The notes beneath the pieces were generated by a model. It made no database searches and had not been told where the DNA came from. It saw only the letters and a program-made list of their open reading frames with translations. The translations under genes were made by a program, and so were the position numbers. From NCBI GenBank assembly GCA_035221665.1, contig CM069131.1, positions 163,742,001-163,806,000 of the forward strand: DNA of 64,000 nucleotides, read 5' to 3'. Below are positions 1,620 through 62,827 of the stretch, in pieces. How positions within the stretch are numbered: the first letter of the stretch is position 1; every line of letters begins with the position of its first letter. This stretch comes from Okamejei kenojei (lineage: Eukaryota).

Positions 1620-1790
1620 CTTTCTTCTTCCCGCCTCCTCCCCCCCACCCTCACATCAGTCTGAAGAAGGGTCTCGACCTGAAGTGTCACCTATTTCCTT
1701 CGCTCCATAGATGCTGCCTCAGCCGCTGAGTTTCTCCAGCATTTTTGTCTACCTTCGATTTTCCAGCACCTGCAGTTCCTTCTTAAACAA
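1620..1790 (+). mobile_element. Penelope-derived terminal-repeat unit with mutated hammerhead motif
   Basis: CTGAAGAAGGGTCTCGACCTGAAGTGTC at 1661-1688 followed by the family sequence ATAGATGCTGCC...CTCCAGCATTTTTGTCT. Confidence 0.75.
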
Positions 1791-2941
1791 GTGTTTGTCT
1801 TAATCACCAGCAGTGATTCGTTTTTAAGCAATAGTCAGAGAAACATACCAACACCTAGAGGACATCAATGTTAGTGCAGAGCTGAAAAATGCAGAGATTA
1901 AAAACAAAGTCAAATATAGAACCAAAATAGTGAGCATTGTGTTCACTGGCTCATGTTAATGTCGCTGTCAAGCCATTTGTATTGTTAGCAGTAACTCTCT
2001 ACATACCACATGCAGGAATTGGAAGGGTGATGTCCGCAGCTGTTGACCATTCAGTTAGCAGTAAGCTGAGGTTTCGTTTAGAGATAGTGTGGAAACAAGC
2101 CCTTTGGCCCACCAAGTCCACGCTGACTATCGATCACCCATACACTAGTTCGATGTCCGACACACTAGGAGAAATTTAGCAGAAGCCAATTAACTTGACC
2201 GTTGTAATATTCTGCACATCTTTGGTATGTGGAAGTAAACCAAAGCACCCAGAGAAAACCCACGCAAGTCACGGGGAGAATGTACAAACTCCGTACAGAG
2301 AAGCACCGTAGAGTCAAGATCTGGGCTGTAAGGCAGAGATTCTACTAGTGGCGCCACCATACTGCCATATAAAGGCCAAAGTAAGAACATTTTCCAAGCA
2401 GGCTTATCAATTTGAAAGAATACAATCTGGCATTAAAAGGAAATGTTGCTGTAGTCAAGTGTCTGAAACATCATGTTCATAAGCGATGGGAGCAGAATTA
2501 GGCCATTCTACCCATCAAGTCTGCTCCGCCATTCAGTCATGGCTGGTCTATCTCTCCTGCCTAACACCATTCTCGTGCTTTCTTATAACAATAGACAATA
2601 GACGCAGGAGTAGGCCATTCGGCCCTTTGAGCCAGCACCGCCATTCAATGTGATCATGGCTGATCATCCACAATCAGTACCTACTCCCCATATCCCCTGA
2701 CTCCACTATCTTTAAGAGCCCTGTCAAGCTCTCTTTGAAAGTATCCAGAAAACCGGCCTCCACCACCCGCTAGAGGCAGAGAATTCCAGACTCACAACTC
2801 TCTGTGTTTCCTCATCTCCGTTCTAAATGGCTTACCCCTTATTCTTAAACTGTGGCCCCTGGTTCTGGACTCCCCCAACATCGGGAACATGTTTCCTGCC
2901 TCTTGCGTGTCCAAACCCTTAATAATCTTATATGTTTCAAT

Positions 2942-3672
2942 ACTCCTCCACGGAGAGGCGACTCTTTCCATGTCGCCTCCCTCGTGGCCTAACATAGAGG
3001 ATCGGTTCGGCCTTTCCCGGAGACGCGCTCTGGGCTTCAGCCGCGGGCGCAGCGAGGACTCTTTCGTTGCAGAGCAGGTGAGCCCTTGCCGGGGGTCGCC
3101 GGAGGGAAGCACTCCGCTCGCTGGCCCGCGGCAGCCTGAAGTCGCGGCCTGCGGAGCTCCAGCTGGCGCGGCGTCCAGAGCCCGGGATCTCTCGTTGGGG
3201 ATCCCGGAGAAGAGCTCCGACCGCCGACCCGCGGCTTATTTCTAACCGAGTGCGCGGCGTGAACTTACCATCCGGAGTGGGATCCCTCGTCGGGGATCCC
3301 TGGAGAGGAGCTCCGACCGCCGGCCCTGTGGTCTGCGGTGCTTCTGGCTGCGGCTCGGTGGGCACATTAAATCTTCAACCGCCGGCCTGCACCATCTTGA
3401 AGTGGCGGTCTCCGGTGGGGAGGCACCGATTCAGGACTTACCAGGACTTACCATGTCTGCACATTTGGACACACGCAGCGGCGATCAAGGGGGAAAATGG
3501 AGGAGGACTGACCAAATTTTGTGCCTTCCAACACAGTGATGAATGCTGTGGTGGATGTTTGTGTTAAATTTTTATTGTGTATTCTTTTTTATATTGTACC
3601 GCTGCTGGCAAATTAATTTCACTGCACTTTATGTGCAGGTGACGAATGAAACCCGACTTGACTTGAAAAAAA
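2942..3672 (+). mobile_element. GC-rich composite non-autonomous retroposon (5'-truncated)
   Basis: Homologous to 36250-37090(-), 38040-38830, 39437-40208, 56610-57410 and 22785-23066; ends in AATTTCACTGCAC...GTGACGAATGAAA plus (ACTTG)n. Confidence 0.7.
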
Positions 3673-3870
3673 AGATCTCCTCTCATTCTTCAAAATACAA
3701 GCCCAGCCGCTCCATTCTCTCAGCATATGACAGTCCCTCCATCCCGGGAATTAATCTTGTGAACCTATGCTGCACTCCCTCAATAGCAAGAATGTCCTTC
3801 CTCAAATTTGGAAACCAAAACTGCACACAATACTCCAGGTGTTGCCTCATTAGCGCCCTGTACAACTGCA

Positions 3871-6852: not shown

Positions 6853-6943
6853 TCAATCATATTGATTGCTCTCTGGTTCTTTATTCTTCTTGCGACCAAT
6901 ATCATCAACAAGCCCCTTCAGGTGTTTCAGATGGCTCAGTGCC
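6853..6943 (-). CDS. C18orf54: C18orf54/LAS2 coding exon 7 (terminal)
   Basis: Acceptor TTTTCTGTCATCAG, phase 2; (R)ALSHLKHLKGLVDDIGRKKNKEPESNQYD*; resembles human KALHHLSRLRDLVDD. Confidence 0.9.
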
Positions 6944-7171
6944 CTGATGACAGAAAACAATGCAGTCATCATCACACTTTAACATACATCCACACTCACT
7001 CAGTTGCTTTTAAAACAAGACTTACATTAAGTAGTGCCTTTCACATACAATTTTACAACTTCCCAAAGGGCCTAATGTCAATCAAGCGCTTTGCAGTTGG
7101 TCTTCTAAAATAGAAAGATAACATATCGACTAATTAACAATCTAATTATAACCAGTTGATCTATTTTAGTC

Positions 7172-7367
7172 ACACAATGCTGGAGTAACTCAGAGGGACA
7201 GACAGTGTCTCTGGAGAGAAGGAATGGGTGATGTTTTGGGTCGAAACCCTTCTTCAGGCATCTCCAGAAAGCCATTCTTCAGAGATGCTGCCTGTCCTGC
7301 TGAGTTACTCCAGCATTTTGTGTTTATCTTCAGTGTAAACCAGCATTTGCCGTTCCTTCCTACACAT
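7172..7367. mobile_element. Inverted pair of Penelope-derived terminal-repeat units
   Basis: Minus copy 7172-7259 (degenerate hammerhead) followed by plus copy 7270-7367. Confidence 0.7.
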
Positions 7368-8988
7368 TCAATCTATTTTAGTGACGTTAGTGCAGGGCAC
7401 CTTCTCTACCTTTCTTCAAAACCCGCAAAGAGGTTTATTTTGTCCTGTCATTTGTTTTTAGGGGCGAGGATAAAGTCAGATGGACCAGCAAATGTTGCCC
7501 CAAATGCAGTCGAGGTTGATGCACATTTTAAAACTATGCTTGCAATTTTTACACCAAGATATCTAGAATGTGTTATTAACTGTTTTTAACAAATGAAATA
7601 CTGTAGATAGTTCATAAATTGTAAGAGCAGAATTTGGTCATTGGGCCCATCAAGTCTTCACCGCCATTCAAACATGGCTGATCTATCTTTCCCTCTCAAC
7701 CTTCATTCTCCTGCCTTCTCCCTACAACCCCTGACACCCGTACTAATCAAGAATCTATCAATCTTAGACAAACCTTTTAAGAAGCTAGGCAAAAAAGGCA
7801 ATATATGCGTGGAACTTGAACACGTGGACGAAGTGTGAAAACGCACATCAGCAGATTTAGGGACAGTTTCTTCCCAGCTGTTATCAGGTAACTGAACCAT
7901 CCTACCACAACCAGAGAGCAGTGTTGAACCACTGTCTACCTCTTTGATGACCCTGGGACTATCCTTGATTGGACTGCTGGTTTTGCCTTGCACTGAACTA
8001 AAGTCGGCAATGAAAACTGCTCATCCATATTCACCAAGGACTTCAGGAAGGAGGCAAGAATATTCTAGACCATGTGACATTGAAAAGCATCTGATGACTT
8101 TGAGGGCTTACAGATGGATAGGTCCTCAGAACTTGATGCGATGGAATATATCCCAAGTTGCTATGGGAGACAAAGGAGATGATTTCTGGGGCCCTGACCA
8201 AGATCTTCAACATTTGCTGGCCAAGCTTAAGATGCCAGGCATATGGATGACACCAATATGGCACAATTAGTCAGGAAGTGCAGCAGGATAGGTAATTACA
8301 GGCTAGTGAGACAAACAGCAGTGATGGAGAAGTTAATGGGAAATATTCTACAGGACATGGTCGATCTAGACTTGCAAAGGCAGGGGCTGATCGGGGATAG
8401 TAAACGTGGCATTGTTGGGTTAGGAGGGACCCTTAATGACTAACTAATTGGGTAGTTACTTAGAAGAAACAAAATATTAGCAAAAGATTCTGAATCAGGC
8501 GGGATGAACTTAAATAATTGGTATGATTTAGAGGCAAGTTGAGGAAAAATCATTCAGAGGGTAGTTGGGGGTCTGGAACTCATTCTTGAAAATATGATAC
8601 AGGCAGATACCCCCAGCACACTTAAACACTATGTGTAGGAAGGAACTGCAGATGCTGGTTTACACCGAAGATAGATGCAAAAAGCTGGAGTAACTCAGCG
8701 GGTCAGGCAGCATCTTTGGAGAAAAGGAATAGGTAACATTTCGGGTCATCTCAAACCAAAACATTCACCTATTCCTTTACACTTAAACACTACTTGGATG
8801 CACGGTGATCTGCAGAGCACAGGGTCATATGGCACGGAAACAGGCCCTTCAACCCAGCTTGTCCATGCCACCCACAATGCCCACTCTAAGCTAGTCCCAT
8901 TTGCCTGCATTTGTCTAAGCCTTTCTATATCCTTGCTGCACCCCAACATTAAATCTCTGGATCCAGACACATCTATGCACTAAGTTAC

Positions 8989-9062
8989 CTTTGTAAAGAC
9001 TTGCTGCCAGGTGCCTCTTCAAATTCCAGGCTCTGGTTTTGAGATGTAAAGTTTTCAGGTAT
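8989..9062 (-). CDS. C18orf54: C18orf54/LAS2 coding exon 6
   Basis: Acceptor CTTTTCTTTTGGCCAG, donor AG|GTAACT, 74 nt (phase 0 to 2); IPENFTSQNQSLEFEEAPGSKSLQ(R). Confidence 0.85.
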
Positions 9063-9958
9063 CTGGCCAAAAGAAAAGCGTTACTTAGCAAGTGATTAAC
9101 AACGACAATAATTATACTTAATATACAAAAATAAATCTCAGAAATTGATTTTTCTGCAGAAACACAGCATTAACTTGCTCAGGCACCGAAGACCGAAAAG
9201 CACAATTGCTGGAAGAACTTAGCTGGTCAGTCAGCATCTGTGGAAAGAAAGGCAGGTTAATGTCCCAGGTCGGTACCCCTCCTCAGAATTGGGGGAAAGA
9301 GTAGATGGTTTATGGTTTTGAAAGCAGAGCTGGGGAAGGAGTAAGATATAAATTGAAAGACCATATGGAGATAAATCAAGACAGATCAGGTGGCAAGGAG
9401 CATGAGTACCGACCATTAGCAATTTTTAAAGAAATAGAGTGAGCTTAATAATGGAAACAATGAGAGACAGTTCAAGTAACCCGGTGAAAGTTGAAAGTTG
9501 GTATATTCAATGTTCATTCCAGAAGGCTGCTAAATGCATAGATGGTATTGGAGTTGGAATATGTGAGGGATTGAGAATTAAAGTGCTAGTCAAGAGTGTA
9601 GTCTTGTCACGTGTACCGAAATAGAACAATGACATTCTTACAGCAACACAACAGGTTTGCAAACACAGTACCCTATAGATAATATGATAAACAAATAATA
9701 ACAGTTCAATATTTTTTTTTTAAACGAGGTAGTGCAAAAACTAAACAAAGTCCAACATCCCTAGTGCAACCAAGACAGATCAGAGATTAGTTGCAGCTCG
9801 TAGTGTTCAATAGCCTGATTGTAGGCAACAGGAAGCTCAGTCACCCTTCAGACTGAGCTTTGCTGCTCTGTGAAGTGATCCCTCTATCTGACTGGTTTCG
9901 CCAACATTGAGAAGGAGGCCACACTGTGAGCACTGAATGCAGCATTCTAGACTGGAAG

Positions 9959-10919
9959 CAAGTGCGGACGTGGCGTTGAAGGACGAGAAGCCAAAGCGAA
10001 GAAGTGGAAGCCAAATAACCGAACGGAAACAAATCCGAAAAGCCAAATAACTGAAAGCGTACAAAGCCGAAAAGCCAACTAACCGAAAGGGCAGGACGCC
10101 TAAAAGCCAACTGACCGAAAGGCCGCAATGCCGAAACGCCAACTGACCGAAAGGCCGCAATGCCTAAAAGCCAAATAACGGACATGACGTCGCCGGGGGG
10201 GCGGAACTTGTCAGCGATTGGTCCAGACCCCCGCGTCCATCACATCACTGGCCGGGTGAAACGGGAGGGTGGGGATCATTTTCCCCACAAGATCTCCCAG
10301 GGCTGGAGGGTGACTGGGCACTCTGAACCCGAGCACCAAGGTGTAAGCGGCCAAAGGAGCGCATCCCTTGGGACATCCCCCACTCTTCCACGGCCACCCT
10401 CCGCCTCGTCTCCCCCATGTGGCCGCAGTGTGACGGGCTGTGGGTCGGCAGTGCGCACACACATGCACACAGCTGGTGGAGCAGAGTTGGGGACAGTCTG
10501 GTCCCTCTGCCCACCTAGAGTCACTGACCGCAATGCACCATGGACGGGGACAGGCATTGCGGCCTTTCAGTGAGTTGGCTTTTAGGCGTCCCGCCCTTTC
10601 GGTTAGTTGGCTTTTAAGCATCCCGCCCTTTTGGTTAGTCGGATTTTAGGCATCCCTCCCTTTCGGTTAGTCGGATTTTAGGCGTCCCGCCCTTTCGGTG
10701 AGTCGGATTTTAGGCGTCCCGCCCTTTCGGTTAGTCGGATTTTAGGCGTCCCGCCCTTTCGGTGAGTCGGATTTTAGGCGTCCCGCCCTTTCGGTTAGTT
10801 GGCTTTTCTGCTTCGTACGTTTTCAGTTATTTGGCGTTTCGGCTTCGTTTCCATTCGGTTATTTGGCTTCCACTTCTTCGCTTTGGCTCCTCGTCCTTCG
10901 ATGTCATGTCCGGGTACCA
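9959..10919. mobile_element. Foldback-type non-autonomous DNA transposon (MuDR-like, long repeat-containing TIRs)
   Basis: Left arm 9965-10180 is the inverted copy of right arm 10552-10912; candidate TSD ACTGGAAG at 9951-9958 and 10920-10927. Confidence 0.7.
10580..10803 (+). repeat. Minisatellite, 7 x 32 bp, inside the right TIR
   Basis: Unit TTTTAGGCGTCCCGCCCTTTCGGTTAGTCGGA, head to tail, no spacers. Confidence 0.9.
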
Positions 10920-13900
10920 ACTGGAAGGCATGCGACTGAATCGCTGCTTCACCTGGGAGTGATAAGTAAGGAAGAAGTGAAGGAACAGATGTTGCATCTT
11001 CTCCAGTTGTATTGGAAGTTGCCATGCGACAGGCAGTGGTGGCATGGATAGAAGAGTGGACCAGGGAAGCACAAAGCAAGCGCACCACTCAAAATGCAGA
11101 AAGGGAAGTAGAAGGAAGATGTGAGGAGTGTCATAGAGTCAGGCATCTGAGAAACAGGCTGTTCTGCACATCACGTCCATGCCAGCCATTGGACACTCAT
11201 CTGTATTAATCCAATCTTCCAGCACTTATCCCAAAGCCTTCAAACTCAGGTGATTCAAATATTCAGTTAAACACCTCTTTAAATCCTGTTAGCACCCCTG
11301 CTAATGTGGAAGTTAATAATGATTTAAAGATACAAAATGGATTCCACTGAAACTAAGACAGGCTTTCACCATCTTCTATTAAATTGCAAAGCTAGCGAAA
11401 ATGCACTAACCTTTGCTTTCAGTACATTAACAAAGCTAGCAGACTGTTGATGTTCCCTTTCCAATAACATAAGCGAGATAACAAGCACAACTTCACGAAT
11501 GTCTCCTCTACCACATAAACATAGGAGAGAATTCAGACTAACCCTTGTTCCACAAGATTATGATATGCGTCATAAAAAAACAAAATGCTTGGTCTGCAGA
11601 AATATAACCTTCTCATATAACCATATATGGCTAACCCTTCCTCTGTCAAAAGAACCAGTCAATCTTCTGATGCTGTCAATCTTAAGGATCTGTTAATCTT
11701 AAGAGACTGTACTAAACTTTATAGATAACTTATTGCTGAATCGTTGAATAGTGGGGTATATATACACATGTACTGAAATCAGTGTCCCTTTGTGTGGGAC
11801 TTCTCTCTTTAGTCTGTTATCAGCATACTGTAAAGAGTTTTTACCACACCCACCTGGCGTAATAAGAGATTACTGCTTATACTGATTTTATTTGCTTTTC
11901 TGTCTGCTTAAGAATATTTGAACCACGACATTACCACACTGTTTCTGGCAGTGCATTCCAGGTTATCACCACTCATGGAAGAAAAAAAAAGGCTGCCTTA
12001 AATACTCTCTATCTTCCACTAAATCTATGTTCTCTAGTTTTATTTACCTCTGAAAAGGGGAAAAGAATGCCTACCCTTTATATACTACTCACAATTGTTT
12101 ACACCTCATTCATATCCCCTCAGCCTCCTCCGTTCCAGGGAAAACACATCTATCTTCTTATCTTTGCTCACAACTAAAATGCTCTGTCCCAGGCAACATC
12201 CTGGTGAAACTCCTCTGCACCCTCTCCTGCAGTATCACATTATCTATCTGCTCTGACACCATCAAAGATCTTTGCACTTGCACATTAAGGGGATCATGTT
12301 GGAGCTGGAGGAAACTGCAAAAGATTTTATTAATTTGACTCGATAGCATGCAAAACAAATTTTCCCAGTATCTCGGTACGCATGACAATACTAATCCAAT
12401 ACATGTGAATGTGACGGCTGGTAGGTTGGCAGGTGAGCACCTTTGTCCCATCCAGGAGAGGTGGGCGAGAGTACAGAAGTAGTAAACCGAGGAAATGTAG
12501 ATGAAATCTACATACCCTGTGGCAGAGGTTGAGCCACATGTCAGGAAGGAGGACGTTTCAGAGGCACCAGAGCAAACGGCCTTATCCCTGGAACAAACGC
12601 AACAGAGATGAAAAACTGGGAAAAGGGAATGACATCCTTACAGGAAGCAGGGCAAAAGGATGTGCAGACACAATCGCCTGTGAGAGCCTGTGGACTTGGA
12701 AAATATATCGGAGACAGAAATCCAGAAAGAGAAGTGTCAAAGATAGACCACGTAAATGTGGAAGCAACATGGAAATTGGTATCAAAAGCATTGAAACTGG
12801 AGTTCTGTACATGTGCAGAATAAAGAAACCATCAGTGAGCTGGAGAAAGAGTTGGGGGAGTGGTCCCAAATAAAACTGAATTAAGGATTGTTACTGCGTC
12901 CAACAAAAAGAAAAGACATATCTAGGGCCCTTGTGAGTTCCATTAGCTACACCTTTAATCAAATAGAATTGAATAAAAAGGAGACTGGCTCCAGCAGAGT
13001 GGCCATTTTGGCAGTGGTTTGGCTTGAGATCCAGCTGCAGTGTTTGAGATTAAGTGACGAGGCTTTGTCAGGAGAGGCTTCAGCGAGGAGGTTAAGCAAA
13101 GGAAAGGAAAGATATATTCAACTGTCTTAGCCTTAGTCAGGAGGAAGTTATGGCAGTACCATGAATTGATTGATTGAAAGGTGAAGCACAGAAACAAGTT
13201 GTTTGGCCCACAGAGTCCACGCTGACCATTGATCACCCTTTCCCATTAGTTCTATGTGATCACACTTTTAACATCCAGTCCCTACACAAAAGGGGCAATT
13301 TTACAGAGGCCAAATAACCTACAAATCTGCACATCTTTGGGATGTGGAAGGAAACTGGAGCACCGAGTGCTGGGGTGCAGGAGGAGACTGGAGATCCTGC
13401 AGAAAACCCACGCAGGTCACTGGGAGAAAGTACAAACTCCATACAGACAGCACCCATGGTCAGGATCGAACCCGGGTCTCTGGCGGTGTAAGGCAGCAAC
13501 TCTACTGCTGCGCCACCGTGCCGCCCACTGTGTTAGTGAGCCTAAGCTCAGGAGTGAGTCATTGACGACTGCTGGCTTTAATATACTTGTAAAAAATTGT
13601 AACCTGGCAGCACTCCTGACAAAGATGAGAAATTCCCTTCCACTTACTGCCATTGATCATGTTTATTTCATATTGTGGAGTGATCAGGGATGAAACCAAT
13701 CTGGCTGATTTATATTTCTCTTACGGAAGAATCTGTCAAGATGTACAAAAAATATTTCTGGAATTGAGACTACATGTTAGCTTTGAAAGTTACCGTTTTA
13801 TGATAAGAAGAGAATTGAGAAGAGAGTTTGGAGTCTGTAGTGATGTCAGGTCTGATTTTACATTCAGTAAATCAGTTGCTGAAAGTGAACCTCTCTCTAG

Positions 13901-15568
13901 CCTATTGTTTACAGATTTTGTTGATCACCAAATGTAGAAGAAAACATGACATTCCATTACTTATCATCTGGTGCACTTTGGCAAAAATCCAAAATGTACA
14001 GAACTTATAAATTTGTTCCCATGTGTCTGAACCTTTTAGCCTTTGTGGTGGACCAAGTTACAGATTTGGGAGGTTACTGTGTGTCCCAGTTAGTTCATCC
14101 AAAGCATTTTGTAGATAGCACGCACTGCAGCCACAGTGCCATAACGGTGGGTGGAATGAATGTTAATGGCAGTGGGTAAGAGGCAATTGAGCAAGCTGCA
14201 GTTTTAGATGGAGTCAAGCTTCTTGAGTATTAATAAAACTACTCACAATTCCCAGAAAATAGAAAGTGCTCCGTCATTTTCTGACTTTGACCCCTGGAAA
14301 TCTCTGGAGTGTCACAAAGTGATTCACTTACCAAAGTCCCCAAGCTCTTGCCTTTTCTTGCAGCCACAGTTTAGTTCAGTTTAGAGATACAGCGCAGAAA
14401 CGGGCCCTTCGGCCCACCAAGTCCGCGCCGACCAGTGATCCCCGCACATTAACGCTACCCTACATACACGAGGGACAATTTACATTTATACCAAGCCAAT
14501 TAACCTACTAACCTGTACGTCTTTGGAGTGTGGGAGGAAACCGAAGATCTCGGAGAAAGCCCACGCGGTCACGGGGAGAACGTACAAACTCCATACAGAC
14601 AGCACCCGTAGTCGGGATCGAACCCGGGTATCTGGCGCTGCAAGCAGTAACTCTACCACTGCTCCACCATGCCACATTATTTATGTGGCTGGCCCAACTT
14701 ATTTTCCTGTTGGTAGTTGATCTTCAGGATGTTGATGGGGGGGATTCCTCTTAATGATGCCATTATTAATAAATGGATAGATTCTCACTTATTGAAGATA
14801 ATTATTTCCTGGTAATTTGACATTTAAATGTTGCTTGCCATTTATCAATCCATATGAAAGTGTTCACCAAATGGCTGCATGAGAATTACTGGTCATTTTT
14901 TGTTCACCATCTGACCAGCAGTGAACAGAGTTCTAGGAGAGCTCATTGTGTTCATCACATGCCCCATTTAACCGGGTTGTTAATAATGCTATAATGTGGA
15001 GCTACAGCAAAAAGATCGGTCCCAAAACATTTGGAAATTAGTTTTCACAAGAGATGCAAACCTCTTGCAGATGGATAATTTTTAAGGCAGAGATAGATAG
15101 ATCCTTGATTAGTATGGGTGTCAAAGGTTAATAGGAGAAGGCAGAAGAATGGGGTTGGGAGGAAGAGATTGATCAGCCATGATTGAATGGCAGAGTAGAC
15201 TTAATGGGCCAAATGGCCTAATTCTGCTCCTAGAACTTATGAACCTCTGGGTGTCCTGCAATATTCTTGATAACTTGATGTAAATAAAAATCCAGAATTG
15301 GAATTTGTGTTGTTTCTGCAGATTTCAATTTTAACTCCACTACGCATGAATGAAGTAAAGATAATGGCTGAAATGAAGCAATGTTGATAAATTTAAACCA
15401 GCTTGCGAGAAGCATGACACACATATTCACGGTGCAGGGCTATGTAAAGTCTCTCCAGTAACACTTTGGCAACATCACACTATTAAATTGCCAAGCAAGT
15501 AACTCAGTTGTAAAACTTTATAATGTTGTAGTTGTCGACTCAAAATCTTTTCAATTTATTCTTCTGAC

Positions 15569-15700
15569 CTCTTCCTGTTCGGTGGGTTCCTCGTCAAAGC
15601 CTTGTTGCACTGTTTGCAAACTGAACAACATCTGTTTGAGTGCTTCAACTGGCCCATGGTGCTTTCTTCCAGAAACTTCTGATGAGCCCGGATGATTTTT
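15569..15700 (-). CDS. C18orf54: C18orf54/LAS2 coding exon 5
   Basis: Acceptor TTCTTGATCTTTAG; [44 protein letters not shown] (human [18 protein letters not shown]); donor GAG|GTCAGA, phase 0 to 0. Confidence 0.9.
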
Positions 15701-15811
15701 CTAAAGATCAAGAAGAATAAGATGTCATTTTGGTAGAAACAAATAGCTGGAGTAACTCAGCGGGTTTTAGCGCCTATCTTCGGTTTAAACCAGCACCAGC
15801 AGTTCTTTCAT

Positions 15812-17457
15812 AGAAACATAGAAAATAGGTGCAGGAGTAGGCCATTTGGCACGTCGAGCCAGCACCGCCATTCAATATGATCATGGCTGATCATCCAAAA
15901 TCAGTACCCTGTTCCTGCTTTCTCCCCTTTCCCTTGATTCCTTTCGCCCCAAGAGCTAAATCTAACTCTCTCTTAAAAACATCCAGTGAATTAGCCTCCA
16001 CTGCCTTCTGTGGCAGAGAATTCCACAGATTCACAACTCTCTGGATGCAAAACATAGAAACATAGAAACATAGAAATTTGGTGCAGGAGCAGGCCATTCG
16101 GCCCTTCGAGCCTGCTCCACCATTCAATATGATCATGGCTGATCATCCAACTCAGTATCCTGTACCTGCCTTCTCTCCATACTCCCTGATCCCTTCAGCC
16201 ACAAGGGCCACATCCAACTCCCTCTTAAATATGGCCAACGAACTGGCCTCAACTACCTTCTGTGGCAGAGAATTCCACAGATTCACCACTCTCTGTGTGA
16301 AAAACGATTTTCTCATCTCGGTCCTTAAACTGTGACCCCTTGTCCTGGACTTCCCCAACATCGGGAACAATCTTCCTGCATCTTGCCTGTCCAACCCCTT
16401 AAGAATTTTGTAAGTCTCTATGAGATCACCCCTCAATCTTCTAAATTCCAGCGAGTACAAGCCAAGTCTATCCAGTCTTTCTTCATATGGAAGTCGTGCC
16501 ATCCCAGGAATCAGTCTGGTGAACCTTCTCTGTACTCCCTCTATGGCAAGAATGTCTTTCCTCAGATTAGGAGACCAAAACTGTACGCAATACTCCAGGT
16601 GTGGCCTCACCAAGACCCTGTATAACTGCAGTAGAACCTCCCTGCTCTTGTACTCAAATCCTTTTGCTATGAATGCCAACATACCATTCGCTTTCTTCAC
16701 AACCTGCTGCACCTGCATGCCTACTTTCAATGACTGGTGTACCATGACACCCAGGTCTCGCTGCATCTCCCCTTTTCCTAATCGGTCACCATTCAAATAA
16801 TAGTCTACCTTCCTGTTTTTGCCACCAAAGTGGATAACCTCACATTTATCCACATTATACTGCATCTGCCATGCATTTGCCAACTCACCCAGTCTATCCA
16901 AGTCATCCTGCAGCCTCCTAGCATCCTCCTCACAGCTAACACTGCCCCCCAGCTTCGTGTCATCCGCAAACTTCGAGATGTTGCATTTAATTCCCTCGTC
17001 CAAATCATTAATGTATATTGTAAATAGCTGGGGTCCCAGCACTGAGCCTTGCGGCACCCCACTAGTCACTGTCTGCCATCCTGAAAAGGACCCGTTCACT
17101 CCTACTCTTTGCTTCCTGTCTGCCAGCCAGTTCTCTATCCACATCAAAAGTTTATTCTTATCTCATTCCTAAATGGCCTACCCCTCATTCTTAAACTGTG
17201 ACCCCTTGTTGTGGACTCCTCGAACATCGGGAACATTTTTCCTGCATCTAGTCTGTCCAATCCCTTAAGAATTTTACATGTTTCTATAAGATCCCCTCTC
17301 ATCCTTCTAAATTGCACACAGCAAAACTGCACACAATACTCCAGGTGTGGTCTCACCAGGATCCTGTACAACTGCAGTAGGACCTCCTTGCTCCTAAATC
17401 CTCTCGCAATGAAGGCCAACATGCCATTAACTTTCTTCACTGCCTGCTGTACCTGCA
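15812..17457 (-). mobile_element. CR1 LINE (16050-17147) nested in an older CR1
   Basis: 331-aa RT C-terminal ORF 16152..17147 with (TTTCTATG)n tail; older copy continues at 15812-16045 and 17150-17457. Confidence 0.9.
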
Positions 17458-18353
17458 TTTTCTACACAAGATGTCACTTTGATTTGGTTTTGTGATTGAA
17501 GAGGCTTACCTGATTACACACTTCAAATACAAAACTAGTAATGTACAGTAGCTATCCATATTGGGAAGAAATAACTGGACTCGTTAACAATTTTTAAAAT
17601 GTTTCCTTTCCTCTTCAGAAACTGACGGGCCAGCTATCTGCTGACAGCTTTAATTTCAGATTTGCATTATTCACATTTTTCCCTTTATCTTCAGCATTTC
17701 ACACACAACAATGCATTGCTCCCTTTCATAACATCCAACAGCCCTTCTTCAAAAGCCCTTTCAGCCTCCTCTGATCTGGCAGTGTTGTCCAATATTCTAA
17801 TTTCCTTTCCTTTTCAGACTCCTTAACTGCGTGGGAGTGAAAGTAACCTGCATCTATTTGTACTACTGGTTGTAGCTGAAGAATTGGCTGTGTTACTTGT
17901 CAGTGCGCATATGCTCACAGCACTATTCTGCTTCACCAATTGGGATTGTCACAGATACAGCATTGTTTGAAGAAGAAAATGGGAAAATATATAACCAGTT
18001 ATTTTTGTAAAAACATTCTTCTGTCATTGTAATCGAGGGTTTGGAATTGAGGGTATTTACTGTGAAGAAATGAAGAACCACAGATGCTGGTTTATACCAA
18101 CACTAGACACAAAGTGCAGGAGTAACTCAGCAGGGCAGGCAGCACTATCCAGAGGTGCTGCCTTACTCGCTGAGTTATTCCGATTTGCGTTAGTCCCTTT
18201 GTTGTGATGTTTTGTGTTTGGAATGAAGGCAAAATAAAAAAAATTCTTCCCCTGAATCAACACCTTTAATTTCAATACGCACGATATTCATACATTTCAA
18301 TGTGTACAGTCTTTGTACATTAGGTGATTCACTGATTAGGTGTCAGGGGTTAT

Positions 18354-20560
18354 AGAAAGGTAACTTTGAGGGTATGAGACGTGAATTGGCCAAGATTGAC
18401 TGGCAATTAATTCTAAAAGGGTTGACGGTGGATATACAATGGAAGACATTTAAAGACTGCATGGATGAACTACAAAAATTGTTCATCCCAGTTTGGCAAA
18501 AGAATAAATCGGGGAAGGTAGTGCATCCGTGGATAACAAGGGAAATCAGGGATAGTATCAAAGCAAAGGATGATGCGTACAAAGTAGCCAGAAAAAGAAG
18601 CATACCAGAGGACTGGGAGAAATTCAGAGACCAGCAGAGGAGGACAAAGGGCTTAATTAGGAAAGGAAAAATAGATTATGAAAGAAAACTGGCAGGGAAC
18701 ATAAAAACTGACTGCAAAAGTTTTTATAGATATGTGAAGAGAAAGAGGTTAGTTAAAACAAATGTAGGTCCCTTGCAGTCAGAAACAGGTGAGTTGATCA
18801 TGGGGAACAAGGATATGGCGGACCAATTGAATAACTACTTTGGTTCCGTCTTCACTAAGGAAGACATAAATAATCTGCCTGAAATAGCAGGGGACTGTGG
18901 GTCAAAGGAGGAATTGAGTGAAATCCAGGTCAGTCGGGAAGTGGTGTTGGGTAAATTGAATAGATTAAAGGCCGATAAATCCCCAGGGCCAGATAGGCTG
19001 CATCCCAGAGTACTTAAGGAAGTAGCTCAGGAAATAGTGGATGCATTAGTGATAATCTTTCAAAACTCTTTAGATTCTGGAGTAGTTCCTGAGGATTGGC
19101 GGGTAGCAAATGTAACCCCTCTTTTTAAGAAGGGAGGGAGAGAGAAAACGGGGAATTACAGACCAGTTAGTCTAACATCGGTAGTGGGGAAACTGCTAGA
19201 GTCAGTTATTAAAGATGGGATAGCAGCACATTTGGAAAGTGGTGAAATCATTGGACAAAGTCAGCATGGATTTACAAAAGGTAAATCATGTCTGACGAAT
19301 CTTGTGGAATTTTTCGAGGATGTAACTAGTAGCGTGGATAAGGGAGAACCAGTGGATGTGGTATATCTGGACTTCCAGAAGGCTTTCGACAAGGTCCCAC
19401 ATAAGAGATTAGTATACAAACTTAAAGCATACGGTATTAGGGGTTCAGTATTGATGTGGATAGAGAACTGGCTGGCAAACAGGAAGCAAAGAGTAGGAGT
19501 AAACGGGTCCTTTTCACAATGGCAGGCAGTAACTAGTGGGGTACCGCAGGGCTCAGTGCTGGGACCCCAGCTATTTACAATATATATTAATGATCTGGAT
19601 GAGGGAATTGAAGGCAATATCTCCAAGTTTGCGGATGACACTAAGCTGGGGGGCAGTGTTCGCTGTGAGGAGGATGCTAGGAGACTGCAGGGTGACTTGG
19701 ATAGGCTGGGTGAGTGGGCAAATGTTTGGCAGATGCAGTATAATGTGGATAAATGTGAGGTTATCCACTTTGGTGGCAAAAACAGGAAAGCGGACTATTA
19801 TTTAAATGGTGGCCGATTGGGAAAAGGGGAGATGCAGCGAGACCTGGGTGTCATGGTACACCAGTCATTGAAAGTAGGCATGCAGGTGCAGCAGGCAGTG
19901 AAAAAAGCGAATGGTATGTTAGCTTTCATAGCAAAAGGATTTGAGTACAGGAGCAGGGAGGTTCTACTTCAGTTGTACAGGGTCTTGGTGAGACCACACC
20001 TGGAGTATTGCGTGCAGTTTTGGTCTCCAAATCTGAGGAAGGACATTATTGCCATAGAGGGAGTGCAGAGAAGGTTCACCAGACTGATTCCTGGGATGTC
20101 AGGACTGTCTTATGAAGAAAGACTGGATAGACTTGGTTTATACTCTCTGGAATTTAGGAGATTAAGAGGGGATCTTATAGAAACTTACAAAATTCTTAAG
20201 GGGTTGGACAGGCTAGATGCAGGAAGATTGTTCCCGATGTTGGGGAAGTCCAGGACAAGGGGTCACAGCTTAAGGATAAGGGGGAAATCCTTTAAGACCG
20301 AGATGAGAAAGACTTTCTTCACACAGAGAGTGGTGAGTCTCTGGAACTCTCTGCCACAGAGGGTAGTTGAGGCCAGTTCATTGGCTATATTTAAGAGTGA
20401 GTTGGATGTGGCCCTTGTGGCTAAGGGGATCAGAGGGTATGGAGAGAAGGCAGGTACGGGATACTGAGTTGGATGATCAGCCATAATCATATTGAATGGC
20501 GGTGCAGGCTCGAAGGGCTGAATGGCCTACTCCTGCACCTAATTTCTATGTTTCTATGTT
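18354..20560 (+). mobile_element. Young CR1 LINE, 5'-truncated, uninterrupted 697-aa RT region
   Basis: ORF 18374..20467 with KSPGPD, NYRPVSLT, DFQKAFD, PQGSVLGP, FADD; 11-bp TSD TCAGGGGTTAT at 18343-18353 and 20561-20571; no endonuclease domain. Confidence 0.97.
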
Positions 20561-20767
20561 TCAGGGGTTATGGGGAAAAGGCAGGAGAATGGGGTTGAGA
20601 GGGAGAGGTAGATCAGCCAAAATTGAATGGCGGAGTAGACCTGATGGGCCGAATGGCCTAATTCTCATCTTATAACTTATGAACTTATTAAATCAAATGT
20701 TGAGAAACAGGCAGGACATGTACAATTTGGTGAAGTTTATCCAGGCTAACCAGTCGTTTACACTGAC

Positions 20768-47008: not shown

Positions 47009-47876
47009 ATAATCATAGGCTCTTAATTTTAAATGTAGTGCTAGTGCTGCTACACAAATGCAAGTTGAAGTTTTTGTTTTATTTATTAAACCCACTCTAA
47101 TCTCGAGCCTTGGACAAAAAATAAACATATGATAGAAGAAAATGAGGCTACATTTACCTCAGGAATCCTGCAATATAATTGAGATAATTCAGACAGGAAG
47201 TTATTCCACCAATTAACATAATTCAATCTGATGCTGCAGATGGATACAAAATGCTGGAGTGATTCAACAGGTTACTCTGGCAGCATCTCTGGAGAGAATG
47301 AATACATGATGTTTCGCGTCGAGACCCTTCTTCAGACTGATCATCAGAATCTGATGCTAGATTGATGACTCTCTGGATCTTGAGCTACCTCCAAGACCTT
47401 GCCTGAGTCGTTAAAAAAAAACAGGAAAATCGCAAATATCGGATGGCTGAAGTGAAAACAGTAACTCCAAGAAATACACAATAAACCAGGCAGCATTTGT
47501 GAAGAGAGACCAATGTTAATATTACATATTATCAGAGTAAAATAATTCAAATAAAATGTTATTTTCACCACAGTTATTGCCAAACCTACTGAGTATTTCC
47601 ACTATTTTCAGTTTTTGTTACGGAATGTTAACCATATAATATAACCATATAACAATTACAGCACGGAAACAGGCCCTCTCGGCCCTTCCAGTCCGTGCCG
47701 ACCATTTGTTTTCCCCTAGTCCCTAGAATGTTCATACTAATGAGTTAAAATGCAGTACTTGAATCAAACTTGAATGTTCCATTCTTTTGTTCAGTTCAAT
47801 AAATATTTTTTGCTTCAAGGAGCAATGTTGGTTGCTGCATAGTTCTTGGCTTCTTTAAATGACACCATCCTATTAT

Positions 47877-48107: not shown

Positions 48108-48627
48108 GCTGATGAAATACTCTGAATTCCAAAGGTAATTAAATACAATGCCCAAGTAGCATTCTAACATTAGACTCAAAATTATTTAATCCTGATTCAG
48201 TGAATACCACAAATGACATTTCAAGGGCCTCAACAGTTTCGGGACTATATCGGAAATAGATTATTTGATCTGTCATACTTATTCTACTCTCAATCTTGTT
48301 TCATCCAGGTCCGATGTAGTGTTAATAAAACTGCATTAACTGGATTTGAGAAGAGTGGTGTCCAGGAGTGCAGGCGGATTTTGTTTTTAATCACTTGTCA
48401 CACAAGAGGCTTTTAATATTGAATTCATCTTTAATTCTGTAGTTATAACGTAAAAGCATTTGACATTACGGAATTCTCATTGGCAGTATGAATATATTAG
48501 CAAATATAACAGTCAGAGTCAGACAAAAGTGTTTTCATATTGCTGTCTTGAAATGTCCGTGTATTTTTACAATTAAGGTTAACAGCAAGGTGCTATCTTC
48601 ACTCTCGCATGTTCAAATTATGGAAAT

Positions 48628-48915
48628 AAGGAACTGCAGATGCTGGAATCATGAGCAAAATACACAAAGTGCTGGAGTAACTCAACAGGTTAAGTAGCAT
48701 CTCTGGAAAACATAGATAGGTGATGTTTTGGGTCGGGACCCTTCTTCAGACATTGTAGTGGGGTAGGGGCAGGAGAGAAAGCTGTGAAAGAGAGATGGGA
48801 GTTGGACAAAGCCTGACAAATTATAGGTGGATACGGGTGAAGGGGGTTTGACTGGCAGATGAGCGGAGTAAGTGACAAAGGTGAGAGGTGAAAAGGAGAC
48901 AAGAGGCTGTCAGAT
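48628..48915 (-). mobile_element. Penelope-derived 3' UTR/terminal-repeat fragment, degenerate hammerhead
   Basis: GTGATGTTTTGGGTCGGGACCCTTCTTCAGAC at ~48720-48751 plus family flanks. Confidence 0.7.
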
Positions 48916-53713: not shown

Positions 53714-56609
53714 TCACTAAAGGTACGTCTTTTTACTCTGAATATAGGAATATAGTGCCTGGTTCCATGGTCTCTGGTAGCCCTCATGTCCTAGACTCTC
53801 TCACTAGTGGAAACATCCTCTCCACATCCACTCAGTCCTGGCCTTTCACTATTGGGCAGGTTTCACTGAATTCCTCTCACCCCCCCCCCCCCCCACCCCC
53901 CACCCCCCACTCATCCTTCTAAGGTCTCATTGTCCTTGTGATCAAAACTGGATTCCTGAAGCAGATACTCTATTCTGAGCTCTATAACGGCCAGGGAGTA
54001 CTGTTTGTGCAGAGCAAACCAGTAAAGGATAAGTTTAATGCCTCCTTGGAAAAGTGCGACAACGCCACCAAATTGAAACGGAGAAGGAGCATTTGAGAAG
54101 GCATTTGTCAGTGCAGCCAAAAACCCACCCCTGCCCCCTTGAGCAGTTCCTGCCCCACCTGCAGTTGAGATTGCAGCTCTCCCATTGATCTCATCAGCCA
54201 CCACTGATTCGATGAAACTGGATTGAACACAAAATCATCCTGAGAGAAAAATCTGGAAAAATGATGGGCTTTGCCCAAAGGTGAATTGTTCAATCACTAG
54301 TGGCCTTGCTCCAAACTTGGAACAGTTTTTGTTAACTGCTAATGGAGCCTGCTCAGCAGAATTTGTGGGTCTTCTTGCGCCAGGTCCTCACATCTTCTTA
54401 GTTTTTTCTTGTGATTAGTGGTAACGAAGGCACATGGTATATTTTCCTTCATTGGTCAGGCATTGAGTCTCAGAGTCAGGAAGTCACGATGCAGCTTTAT
54501 AGGAAGATAGACACAAAAAGCTGGAGTAACTCAGCGGGACAGGCAGCATCTCTGGAGAGAAGGAATGGGTGACATTTTGGGTCGAGACCCTCCGTCAGCT
54601 TGATAGGACTGAATATGCTGCATTTGGAGTATTTGGCATTCAATTATGGTCGCTCACTACTGGTAGGATGTGGAAGGTTTGAAAAGGGTTATAAGAATGA
54701 TGCCCAGATTAGAGGGTTTTAGCTTGGACAGACTTGGATAGTTTTTGCTGGATTGCTTTCTCTGGAGGTTGTAGAGAGCCCTGATAGAAGTATGTAAAAT
54801 TATGAGAGCCATAGATAAGGTAGACAGTCAGAACCTTTTGCCCAGGATGGAAAAATCACAATATTAGTGGGGCAAAGCTTAAAGGAGATATGTCGAGCAA
54901 GTGTTTTACATAGAGGGCTGTGAGTGCCTTGAACATGCTGCCGGGGGGGGTGGGGGGGGGGGGGGGGGGGGGGGGGGGTTAGTTTAGTTTAGAGATACAG
55001 AGCAGAAATGGGCCCTTCGGCCCACCAAGTCCATACTGACCAGCGGTTCCCGTACGCATACACTATCCTACACACAGTAGGGACAATTTACACTTATACA
55101 AAGCCAATTAATCTATAAACCTCTATCTCTTTGAGGTGTGGTAGGAAACTGGTTGTCCAGGAGAAAACCCACGCAGGTCAAGGGGAGAAGGTACAAACAA
55201 GCACCTGTAGTCAGGATTGAACCCGGGCCCCTGGCGCTGTAAGGCAGCAACTCTACCGCTGCTCCATTGTATCGACGAGGGTGTTGAGGCAGATATTAGA
55301 CTTTTGGCTAGGCATATAGATGTGCAGGGAATCCAGTGTTATGGATTATGTGCAGGCAGGTGAGAGTTCGTTGTGGAATCATGTTCAGCAGAGGCATTGT
55401 GGGCTGAAGGGCCTTTCTTTTGCTGGATTGTTCTATGTTCTATAATATTTCTGACAAACTCACTCCTTAGCATCAGCACATCAGATATAATTACAGTAGC
55501 TGCTTCTCTACTTATAATTTATTTGAGCAGATCAAAGTGACGAGTAATCTTTTCATGGCTCTCAGCCTTTGGCAGAAAATAGTTTCTTTTTTTCTGTTTT
55601 CATGAACCTGCTGACGCAGCAATTTCTTTGTATGGAAAGTGCTTGGTTGAATTTCCTCATGAGTTTGTATTAATTCAAAGAGTCATGGTGGTGAATCAAA
55701 ATAGTGATATGTACTTTTAGGAGACTGATTTTTAACTCAGAGTGGGTTTCAAGCAGGGAAGGACACAGAAAAATCCTAAAACTCTCACAGTTTTCAGGCC
55801 CAGAGTATTTTAACTCCAGGCTTAATTTCTTCCAGGAACACTGGGAAGACAGTGTCGAGTGCCAACTGAAAGGAAAAATGGAGCAGCTTTTGCCCAGTGT
55901 AGCACAGTGGTAAAGTTGCTGCCTGACAGCCGCAGAGACCTGGGTTCGCTCCAGACAATGGGTAGTCTGAAGAAGGGTCTCAACCAAAAACGTCACCTAT
56001 TCCTTCTATCCAGAGATGTTGCCTGACCTGCTGAGTTACTCCAGCATTTTGTGTTTATCTTCGGTGTAAACCAGCATCTACAGTTCCTTCCTTCCAGCAC
56101 ATCCTGACTACGGGTGCTGTCTGTAGGGAATTTGTACGTTCTCCCCGTGACCATGTGGGCTTTCTCCAGGTGCCACAGTTTCCTCCCACATTCCAAAGGC
56201 GTGCAGGTTTGTAGGTTAATTGGCTTTGGTAAATTGTCCCTAACTTGCCGGATAGAACTAGTGTACGATTGTTAGTTTTTAGGCTTTAGAGATACAATGT
56301 GGAAACTGGCCCTACAGCCCACCGAGTCTGCACCGACCAGCAATCCCCCTGTTCTCCAGCACTATCCTACACACAAGGGGCAATTTATAATTTCTACTCC
56401 TCTTGGCCCCACTGTGCAAAACATTTGAATTTCCGGAGAATCTCTTCATCATCTCACCAGCTCCAAACTTGATCGAGCTGGGTAAGAAAGCACCAGCAAC
56501 CTCTTCACTCAGGGCCATGGGAAAAACATTACTGGGGATTTTGATGTGATAGGATTCTCAATTAGTATTTTATCAGCCATGATCATCTTGATCATTGTGC
56601 AGCAGCCTT

Positions 56610-59710: not shown

Positions 59711-59934
59711 AGACGGCAATTGGTTGTTTCATCCTATATGCTATTTAGTAAGGCCATGACTGATCCAATTCTATGGCATTGTCCCGTTGATATAAATGGG
59801 ATTGTGGGTCTCTATCCTACCCCTTCCAAAGTCTGCAATCAGTTCCTTGGTTCTATGCTTGCTTCAAAATGGAGGACATTGAAGTGCCTTCTCGAGCCCC
59901 CATAGCATAATTGTAATCTCAGACATTCAGGTAA

Positions 59935-61200
59935 GAACATTAGAAGATCCTTCATGAGGGTGAACCCTCTGAAAGCATCCGGACCTGATGATCACAGTCT
60001 CAAAACCTGCACAAACCAACTGGCTGGAGTTTTCCTGGACATCTTCAACCTCTCATTAATAAGGTCTGCAGTTCCCACCTCCTTGTATACTGATGCCCAA
60101 GAAAAGGTAAGGTGACATTCCTCTAAAACTGCTGACTGGTGGCACAACGGTTCATGGTGATTAAGTGTTTTGAGAGGTCGGTTATGGGACTACCCCAGCA
60201 AGAACCTGGAGTCACAATTTGCCTACTGCCACAATAGATCAATGGTGAATGCAATCTCGCTGACTCTCCACTGGACCAACTGGACACCAAGAACACATCT
60301 AGACACAAAATGCTAGAGTAACTTAGCAGGACAGGCAGCATCTCTGGAGAGAAGGAATGGGTGGCGTTTCGGGTCGAGACCCTTCTTCAGACTGATGGTC
60401 AGTTGGCCAGGTGGGCTGAGGAATGGTTAATGGAATTTACCAACTTCAGGGAACCCGGGCTCTGCACATCCCTTTGCAACTGGGATCATCAACATACACG
60501 GAATCAAGGGATGTGGGGAAAAAGCAGGAATAGGGGACTGATTTTGGATGACCAGCCATGATTATATTGAATGGCGGTGCTGGCTCGAAAGACCGAATGG
60601 CCTACTCCTGCACCTATTTTCAATGTTTTTAAACCGCAATCAGTAAGAATTGGCAATAATTCTTCCTCCTCTATAACCACCAGGCTGCTCCTCAAGGCTG
60701 TGTGGTCAGCCCCTCCACTTCTCATTCTCCACTCATGACTGTGTAACTGGACACAGTTCCAACTCCATCTTTAAATTTACCGATTACACCACCGTTGTTG
60801 GAAGAATTGTGGGTAGTGACGAGCCAGAGGAATTGTGGGTAGTGATGTAGGAGGGAGATCGATTTTCTGATGAAATGGTGCCAAAACATCAATCATGTTC
60901 TCAACCGAGGTAAACCAAGGAGATTGCAAAATGTCATAGTGAACGCTGGTCCATCATGGGTATTAATCTCTCCTCCATCGAAGAGACGTACAGAAGGTGG
61001 TGCCTCAAACAGGCAGTTAGCATCATCAAGAACCCATCATCAAGAGCCCAAGACTCAAGAACCCATGCTAGCCTGGCCTCATTCTCATTTCACTCTGCTG
61101 TTAGGAAGAAGGTATTGGAGTCTGAACAGCATGACCTCCAGTTTTACGAACAGCTTCTTCACAACAACCATCAGGCTCTTGAACACTACAATTGCTAACT
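59935..61200 (+). mobile_element. Highly degraded Rex1/Babar-type LINE, interrupted by Penelope-derived and CR1 pieces
   Basis: Remnants of VNP.KASGPD, DIFNLSL, APQGCV.SP and KF.D.TTVVG motifs in broken frames. Confidence 0.6.
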
Positions 61201-62827
61201 AAACTAGAAAGGCACAAGGGTATAGAAACATAGAAAATAGGTGCAGGATTAGACCATTTGGCCCTTTGAGCCAGCACTGCCATTCAATATGATCATGGCT
61301 GATCATCCAAAATCAGTACCCCGTTCCTGCTTTCTCCCCATAGCCCTTGATTCGGTTAGCCCTTAGAGCTAAACCTAACTCTCTCTTGAATACATCGCAG
61401 GTTTCCCGCATACATATGCAGGAAATAGAGGGATATAGATCACGTGCAGGCAAAGGAGATTCCTTTAACCTGACATCGTGTACATTGTGGGCCAAAGTGC
61501 CAGTTTTGCTGTGTACTTTCCTATGTTCCATGTATCACTATCCAGCAGTAGCTCCTGGTCTTCATCATTAACAATGGAAGTTATCACAATCAATTTTGAT
61601 GCATGAATAACTCTTCATACTTCTTATTTGGACTCCTTCCCTGTTCTTCCTCAAGCGCAGCCTCCTCTATCTGTCTTTTTCTGACGATACTATGGGTTCT
61701 TTCCATCAGTTTTGAGCCTGTTCTATCCACCTCTCCCAATTCTCTAACTTGGTTCTATGTTATCCCTCTCTCCTTGGCTTGCCTGTAACCCTCATCTACC
61801 TATCCACCGTTACACATTGCCTGAACCATTATATAACTCCCTACATTCTCCAATCCTCCTTTATCTTCGCCCCATTAGCTTCTAACCTCTACCCTCCTTA
61901 TTCTGGTTTATGTGCAATTTTCTTTTCCCCGGTGGCCCCACTTTACAAGAGTAGACATTGTCCTGACTCACTAATTCTAGACGTCGATCAACAATGAAAG
62001 GAAATTAACCACAGATTATTTATGTGTATGCAATGCTAAATCGCTGTTAATTCTCCCTGAGCTCCCAGTGAACTGTTAATTCAGGACAATGTTCTGAGAA
62101 TAGACACAAAAAGCTGGAGTAATTCAGCAGGACAGGCAGCATCTCTGGAGAGAAGGAATGGGTGCCGTTTCGGGTCGAGACCCTTCTTCAGACTGGTTCG
62201 GAGAATCAGTTTTAATTCAGTGCAGTTCTACAGAAGGGTGAGGTCCTCAGTTTAACATACATTTCCATGTAAATATTTGTAATGATAATAATTCGGGCAG
62301 TTAAATGTATTTTTATCAACACAGCAAGTTTATAATAATCACAGCAACACACTCATACAACAATCTGCTGCAGTAGCAAGCAGAAGCAGCTGACATGCAA
62401 TGAAACACAAATCACAAAATTCCAGTCCCCTTTTCTTTGAAGGGCACAACATGTATTGCAACACGCAGCTTTAAAGAACGTTATCTTGTCATTTTGTCTC
62501 AACATTATACTCCAATATAATCACATGCATTATCTTTAAGGTAAAAATGTTGAACATTCATAAACAACAACCTCTCACTATGTATTTCTGCTTGAGGGAG
62601 AGTCAGCAGTTTCCTGACTTTAAGAATATACTTCTTGATTGGAGTACCATTATCACAGTGTGCATGCATTTAATGGATACATTGGTGTTTATTTCTCAGT
62701 TAAAACTTTCCAAGCTTGTCGCCTGTTTGAATTTTCAGTCTTTGTGTTGCCGCTTATACATCAAGTATTTTTATTGGAAGAAATTAATCCTGTTTTGCAC
62801 GGTACACCTTTTAATCAAGCCCGTGTT

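Follow-up and report, generated by a model that had tools for sequence, protein, structure and literature searches.

Minimal hammerhead ribozymes have been known since 2014 in the pseudo-long terminal repeats (pLTRs) of metazoan Penelope-like elements (PLEs), where they combine a CUGANGA core, an extra base before helix II, a G10.1-C11.1 pair, and the remnant of a palindromic helix III (Cervera and De la Pena, 2014; PMC4209133). Units bearing a motif of this kind recur in a 64,000-nt stretch of skate DNA (Okamejei kenojei, assembly GCA_035221665.1, contig CM069131.1, positions 163,742,001-163,806,000; hereafter the window), at a density of approximately one locus every 2.7 kb, or 24 over the 64 kb. 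Both the class of motif and the anatomy of the insertions are already published, and it is the abundance of the skate units and their sharply fixed ends that stand out.

Several described systems resemble the skate units. In the lizard PLE Poseidon_Ac (PAc) of Anolis, the ribozyme precedes two internal reverse transcriptase (RT) start sites bounding an optional tail of 30-40 bp, and both DNA strands serve as primers; the ribozyme cuts only when the protein is present, and cleavage proved dispensable for insertion in vitro (Frangieh et al., 2024; PMC11167929). The same order of ribozyme and two start sites, and the same use of both strands, presumably apply in skate, but PAc belongs to the Poseidon clade, whereas the skate element has a Neptune-type linker and is known here from sequence alone. 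Inverted-pLTR Penelope insertions likewise display head-to-head ends, a tail at one end, target-site duplications (TSDs) of 8-14 bp, and solo pLTRs (PMC3846280; PMC8557442), the TSDs given in PMC3846280 being 8-10 bp; in contrast, most skate insertions hold only the last 95-135 bp of the element and occur at the density given above. Similarly, animal non-LTR retrozymes are non-coding, hammerhead-bearing, related to PLE terminal repeats, and found as dispersed monomers, yet they consist of tandem units each with a full hammerhead, while the window contains monomers, inverted pairs, and one damaged direct dimer (10.64898/2026.07.22.740005).

The closest comparison is with the ribozymes described in 2014, with which the skate motif shares the CUGANGA core, the unpaired base between positions 9 and 10.1, the G10.1-C11.1 pair, and the GAAA-C-G-U-H palindromic helix III, as well as a site following a GIY-YIG stop codon, mostly solitary truncated copies, and nearby copies on the opposite strand (PMC4209133). 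Helix I in skate lies at the short end of the published range, with 2 bp as in D. virilis, and two-pair helices also occur in the published alignment. Copy number in skate is apparently far above the 4,000-9,000 intact motifs of coelacanth and Xenopus, though the skate figures include decayed copies. No shark or skate example appears in the parts of that study represented here, and no publication joining Penelope, skate, shark, and ribozyme was found, although supplements or repeat databases may already hold the family.

The repeat itself is real. BLAST searches with four window copies, followed by curation by eye, identify 33 pieces at 24 loci, amounting to 2,600 bp or 4.1% of the window, and a 30-nt hammerhead pattern yields 10 matches at no more than three mismatches as compared to none in 100 shuffles of the window. 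A preliminary description of this stretch had proposed approximately 20 units; a piece was found at every coordinate it listed, though the list lacked the loci at 9201, 15732, 18073, 27106, 38984, 39349, and 40447. Additionally, the motifs that it listed at 37540 and 37795 are the two halves of one ribozyme, with the 3' end of a CR1 long interspersed element (LINE) inside the core. CR1 3' ends adjoin or interrupt three of the 24 loci (15811, 34878, 37545). Apart from one damaged direct dimer (26925-27160), the window contains no tandem array. A search of the window against Rfam at E<=1 matched no hammerhead family, which is uninformative about a motif lacking helix III, and a scan of viral contigs for the motif gave no matches. 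A CUGA-GAAA match at 31634, within an exon of the gene LAS2, lacks helix II and was dismissed as chance.

To judge from its sequence, the skate motif fits the published consensus on each point. Specifically, the majority sequence of the window copies and the copy at 42531 match the CUGANGA ... GAAA ... UH core with an extra base before helix II; helix II, with its G10.1-C11.1 pair, is paired in 92% of cells over 13 rows, with no compensatory changes inside the family; and the majority sequence contains the helix III palindrome ACGU, ACGUC being retained in 3 of 13 copies. Helix I comprises 2 bp in all five family copies found by a strict regular expression, and its third pair is open in 12 of 13 rows, with one plausible compensatory change in the 9201 subfamily. 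Two motifs had been put forward as intact: that at 42531-42560(-), alone in the window, satisfies a complete descriptor covering helix I, helix II, and the core, for which a match arose in 1 of 30 shuffled windows, while that at 21401-21433(+), found here as the copy at 21403, keeps its core and has an A-G mismatch in helix II. In predicted monomer folds, the core and helix II strand would pair with a pyrimidine stretch just 3' of the cut, leaving helix II a probability of ~0.01; predicted dimers reach -12.7 kcal/mol in an active-like form vs. -26.9 kcal/mol at best, in a calculation that does not count helix I and tertiary contacts. Folding z-scores for seven window copies and one metagenomic look-alike (-0.92 to +0.68) are no better than those of shuffles. 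Such modeling neither demonstrates nor excludes cleavage by the skate copies; for Xenopus, one of nine tested dimers cut (bioRxiv 10.64898/2026.07.22.740005).

The derivation from PLEs that had been proposed for these units is supported both by the consensus fit and by the GIY-YIG gene ends lying upstream. As anticipated for the unit at 37205-37915, the ribozyme there follows the end of a GIY-YIG open reading frame (ORF), encoded by 37205-37462(+) and possessing 28 homologues, foremost among them proteins of skates, rays, and sharks (62-79% identity), though a Pfam search with the 86-aa piece returned no match. Directly to its left, at 37108-37200(-), part of the same ORF lies inverted and carries a C-x3-CxxC linker, and C-x4-CxxC-like forms are found in homologues; a CX2-5CxxC linker between RT and endonuclease is a mark of Neptune and Nematis (PMC8557442). 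A second ORF link is provided by the older unit at 9201(-), which follows a degraded GIY-YIG end at 9479-9556 (weak tblastn match, E 0.012). No RT is attached to any unit within the window; a degraded PLE RT remnant at 12452-12971(-) carries no unit. On the best reading of these data, the units probably constitute the ribozyme-bearing end, or pLTR, of several Neptune-type PLE subfamilies. Among metagenomes, a motif scan identified five loci, none similar to the window by blastn. One of these (L003) presents an RT-endonuclease remnant, an untranslated region (UTR), and then a similar ribozyme, the same order in sequence unrelated at the DNA level; it was accordingly rejected as a DNA-level relative and stands as a parallel only. 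The minimal-hammerhead look-alikes of other animals in this set lie at 2726-2753(-) in L001/L004, 120-145(-) in L003, and 1276-1300(+) in L005, the last of which also carries a weak GIY-YIG match.

The ends of the units are sharply defined. Leaving aside five arms that are truncated or ambiguous, 19 arms have their 3' ends at consensus positions 96-102 (10 cases) or 126-139 (nine), with none between, such that units of ~95 bp and ~135 bp differ by a PLE 'tail' and the two end classes lie ~40 nt apart. This spacing matches the optional tail between the two RT start sites of the lizard PLE (PMC11167929). TSDs scoring at least 8 (11-15 bp) accompany 5 of the 21 insertions tested among the 24 loci, a score reached by 2% of 400 site pairs drawn at random, and the TSD-bounded solo copies at 62102, 54505, and 47240 start 4, 0, and ~6 nt before residue C3. 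Upstream of the ribozyme, none of the nine core-bearing copies of the dominant subfamily extends into PLE sequence, vs. five of eight in other subfamilies (Fisher p=0.009, post hoc grouping); extension was judged by pyrimidine content and ORF linkage, since upstream regions of different subfamilies align no better than chance. The pyrimidine tract and AG before helix I were also considered as a splice acceptor, as in D. virilis, and this was rejected as the loose ends of contigs reveal no shared spliced-on exon. At 60275-60415, inspection by eye indicates that the 60300 unit lacks a direct TSD, ~15 bp of one flank recurring in inverted form on its 5' side. No tRNA was called. Its antisense strand, for example 54505-54598(+), carries look-alikes of the tRNA A-box and B-box patterns, with one mismatch each; 32 of 1,000 shuffles match or beat them, making this post hoc observation a weak lead for an antisense RNA polymerase III transcript.

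Three inverted pairs had been noted in the window (7172-7367, 21321-21492, 31205-31390); these are as described, and five more exist, at 8632, 15732, 18073, 30076, and 37108. All eight are head-to-head (p=0.008). A tail is present on exactly one arm in seven of the eight and on both arms in none, and in six of the seven one-tailed pairs the tail-less arm extends further 5'.

Evidence from beyond the window was drawn from contigs of four public runs aligned to 61900-62900 at 80% likeness, three of them large and each carrying a different species label. In these three runs 160,017, 144,736, and 137,377 contigs aligned, almost all on the 62102 unit. The summed unit depth is 1.2-1.8 million times the single-copy depth, a figure that overlapping short contigs inflate and that is not a copy number; junction-bearing contigs, numbering 23,000-26,000 per run, set a floor of ~10^4 copies. 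If the window density is typical of a multi-gigabase genome, there would be several 10^5 copies. Together with that density, the contigs of the three species labels suggest very many copies and so support the earlier expectation of a very abundant family; the insertion at 62102 is itself present under all three labels.

Contig joints and loose ends provide further leads, drawn from 15 of the 201 joints and 24 of the 756 rows of loose ends, with some events uncounted and with clipping biased at 62165, where the reference carries a mismatch, and at 62151, where subfamilies differ. Among the loose ends covered, 3,533 contigs of run X1 end at 1, 2, or 3 nt before C3 (915, 1,348, and 1,270, respectively) with AT-rich, low-agreement sequence beyond, while 1,932 end at -4 with purine-rich sequence beyond and so partly represent longer copies. 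All nine opposite-strand joints listed unite an arm ending 0-4 nt before C3 with one whose end lies 1-15 nt 3' of the predicted cut, the three runs contributing 97, 81, and 71 contigs, and head-to-tail joints number 85, 111, and 118 contigs. In several runs, two ribozyme heads occur in direct tandem ~38 nt apart (62195-62197 to 62166), a possible in-cis dimer locus. Run X8, which by a guess may be RNA, contains a long contig that stops at 62324, short of the 62102 unit, as well as a 1,357-nt contig of depth 312 ending in a near-consensus sense unit; this may mark the end of a PLE transcript or belong to a host 3' UTR. A loose end of X8 at 62164 was rejected as evidence of cleavage, as it continues into ribozyme-like letters and is a product of the mismatch at 62165. 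Likewise not claimed is an untemplated cap-derived G at 5' junctions, hinted at just by the first consensus letter of the loose ends and one window copy.

Many of the units lie within a host gene, LAS2/C18orf54, represented by a large exon at 31523-32383(-) and six others within 6856-35951, with best matches to skate proteins at 86-96% identity. An assembly gap of 140 N (36108-36247) lies just upstream of its first coding exon. A further ORF at 62828-63850(-) carries a ubiquitin-binding UBM motif and is read, from synteny, as the last exon of POLI. The suggestions that core mutations or antisense orientation might be favored inside the host gene are not supported: within the LAS2 coding span, nine unit pieces are sense and 10 antisense, many of them arms of pairs and so not independent, and intact cores number 4 of 13 where 3.5 are expected. 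Across the 13 copies with both core halves, CpG decay affects 5/13 core and 10/26 body sites, and non-CpG changes 7/130 and 58/598, respectively (p=0.13). An earlier comparison of core and body (7/155 vs. 156/1,347) was discarded as biased by local-alignment ends and subfamily differences. These data show that the units decay neutrally, cores decaying like the flanking body, and selection by the host on cores or orientation is not seen.

Taken together, the consensus fit, the GIY-YIG ends, the two 3' end classes, the TSDs, the head-to-head pairs, and the neutral decay lead to a reading that we regard as probable, by analogy with the lizard PLE studied in vitro: the units would be short cDNAs primed inside PLE RNA, forming Neptune-type pLTR ends, and the pairs would arise by twin priming. 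According to this model, in which the RNA start, strand displacement, and the source element are all inferred, the PLE protein would nick target DNA and reverse transcription would begin inside the element's own RNA, either ~65 or ~105 nt downstream of the predicted cut. Where the RNA has its 5' end just upstream of the ribozyme, copying would run off after ~95 or ~135 nt and leave a short dead unit, while on read-through RNA it would proceed into the UTR and ORF and yield longer copies. Should both nicked strands prime on one RNA, a head-to-head pair would result in which a single arm carries the tail and the other usually extends further 5'. Provided that the ribozyme is active, it would work only in source elements, as a dimer formed via the ACGU palindrome and probably with protein help, and inserted copies would lose it through ordinary CpG decay.

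Several observations weigh against this model. Sixteen of the 21 tested insertions lack a clear TSD, and TSD-bounded 5' ends scatter from 0 to about -6, so that a single start site is not established. The 8632 pair departs from the order expected of twin priming, the 21320 pair has no tail, and two RNAs, or else strand displacement, would be needed for arms whose sequences overlap. The dominant subfamily has no full-length parent among the sequences found here; both copies linked to an ORF come from other subfamilies. The joint and loose-end evidence covers just the fraction of events given above.

The family had previously been proposed to be non-autonomous, which is partly supported. The corresponding alternative, which we consider unlikely, holds that the dominant subfamily is a true short interspersed element (SINE)-like element whose ~135-nt ribozyme-headed RNA, made from short sources, is mobilized in trans by a Neptune-type protein. 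An initiator (Inr)-like TCAGTCT at the 5' boundary would suit such an element, as would the TSD-bounded solo units, the head-to-tail joints, and the failure of dominant-subfamily copies to extend upstream, although run-off from autonomous PLE RNA explains this last point equally well. PLE-derived non-autonomous retrozymes are, moreover, reported in vertebrates, including one chondrichthyan (10.64898/2026.07.22.740005). However, clustering gave no clean subfamily separation, the contigs running past -4 indicate that some close relatives are longer, the single damaged dimer is the only tandem arrangement in the window, and the lizard PLE RNA needed ORF sequence beyond the RT start sites, which short units would lack (PMC11167929). 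The head-to-head pairs might instead derive from two RNAs in a dimeric particle, one of them ribozyme-cut, which would place the start of one arm ahead of the ribozyme and that of its partner at the cut or a little beyond it. The nine opposite-strand joints display this very pairing, the first base past the cut is exactly where the 21320 arm starts, and the lizard PLE protein, a predicted dimer, extends both strands (PMC11167929). We nevertheless find this origin improbable: the commonest ends among the joints covered lie 13 and 15 nt past the cut rather than at it, the clipping biases described above apply, five of the eight window pairs do not fit, and the same picture would arise from stalling at structure or if a trailing polymerase were blocked 30-45 nt away from the end of the RNA; in the lizard system, cleavage was unneeded and no reads ended at the cut (PMC11167929). 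Doubtful to a like degree is the combined proposal that the dominant subfamily is a self-propagating, ribozyme-headed PLE satellite of 95-135 nt at 10^5-10^6 copies, whose pairs are the record of integrations that used two paired RNAs, one of them cleaved at GUC.

Least credible of all is a purge by the host of active sense-strand ribozymes from introns. The sole fully intact copy does lie outside the LAS2 coding span, and downstream of the POLI stop, on the same strand as that gene, both near-consensus copies are changed at U16.1, though two cases prove nothing. Against such a purge stand the near-even orientation and the near-expected number of intact cores, themselves small numbers, and there would be little to select against because a lone monomer is predicted to misfold. 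Run-off from PLE RNA combined with twin priming remains the reading preferred here.

Table 1. Units, unit fragments, and host gene in the window.
Feature	Position	Strand	Remarks
Minimal hammerhead, only fully intact copy	42531..42562	-	CUGAAGA plus extra A, 4-5 bp helix II, GAAA-C-G-U-C with ACGU palindrome, 2-bp helix I; unit to 42480
Inverted PLE ORF piece with C-x3-CxxC zinc-linker	37108..37200	-	5' inversion of insertion 37108-37917
GIY-YIG endonuclease C-terminus and stop codon	37205..37465	+	79% identical to skate PLE-derived proteins
Pyrimidine-rich 3' UTR and first half of ribozyme core	37466..37544	+
CR1 LINE 3' end inserted in ribozyme core	37545..37792	+	Repeat families D9, D19, D20
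Ribozyme second half, body, tail	37793..37917	+	Subfamily in common with 1654
Unit with upstream pyrimidine tract and tail	1618..1789	+	A15.1 mutated
Head-to-head pair	7159..7385	both	7171-7257(-) whole hammerhead, no tail; 7275-7367(+) 5'-truncated, tail; TSD 12-15 bp
Head-to-head pair	8618..8792	both	8632-8747(-) with tail; short + arm 8759-8778; perfect 14-bp TSD
Older-subfamily unit and degraded GIY-YIG end	9201..9556	-
Head-to-head pair	15732..15811	both	Arms barely overlap: body piece -, tail piece +; CR1 3' end adjoins
Head-to-head pair without ribozyme	18073..18181	both
Head-to-head pair	21320..21492	both	- arm starts at first base after predicted cut; + arm 21400-21492, intact core, helix II mismatch
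Two units in direct tandem, both damaged	26925..27160	+
Solo unit in CR1 remnant	29569..29663	-	Core intact, palindrome altered
Head-to-head pair	30076..30189	both	Tail arm (-) and 14-nt + arm
Head-to-head pair	31205..31391	both	- tail arm truncated; + arm with whole but mutated hammerhead
Partial unit cut by CR1 3' end	34808..34877	+
Three short remnants	38984-39029, 39349-39373, 40447-40475	+
Solo unit, 5'-truncated	41549..41627	+
Solo unit	47225..47358	-	Perfect 11-bp TSD
Unit of another subfamily, long pyrimidine-rich upstream part and tail	48625..48900	-
Solo unit, 5' end at core	54492..54608	-	13-bp TSD, 1 mismatch
Solo unit with tail, starts 3 nt before C3	55964..56090	+	Inside a SINE-like repeat
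Solo unit	60300..60397	-	U16.1 mutated
Solo 94-bp unit 62102-62195	62091..62206	-	Starts 4 nt before C3; U16.1 mutated; 11-bp TSD, 1 mismatch; site shared by two other species labels
Host gene LAS2/C18orf54	6856..35951	-	7 coding exons; 19 unit pieces in introns

Much of the remaining window is filled by CR1 LINE pieces. Three CR1 copies (18804-20562, 49089-50847, 3871-5053) match one another at 100% identity over 1.2-1.8 kb, contain an open RT frame of 703 aa, and may represent a very young or active subfamily. In addition, the window contains a U1 snRNA-like copy at 45169-45332(+), probably a pseudogene (Rfam 68.6 bits, gathering score 69.5), a Tc1/mariner-type transposase remnant (DDE_3) at 28058-29086(-), and a 32-bp minisatellite at 10520-10901 with a related inverted stretch near 9965-10189.

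If the density observed in the window holds genome-wide, skates offer very many insertion junctions, from which it could be settled whether insertions in vivo are shaped by PLE ribozyme cleavage, by priming at two internal sites, and by twin priming. Were the satellite and two-RNA proposals to prove true, skate genomes would constitute a very large fossil record of PLE hammerheads cutting in vivo during retrotransposition, a role that is still open in the studies cited here.

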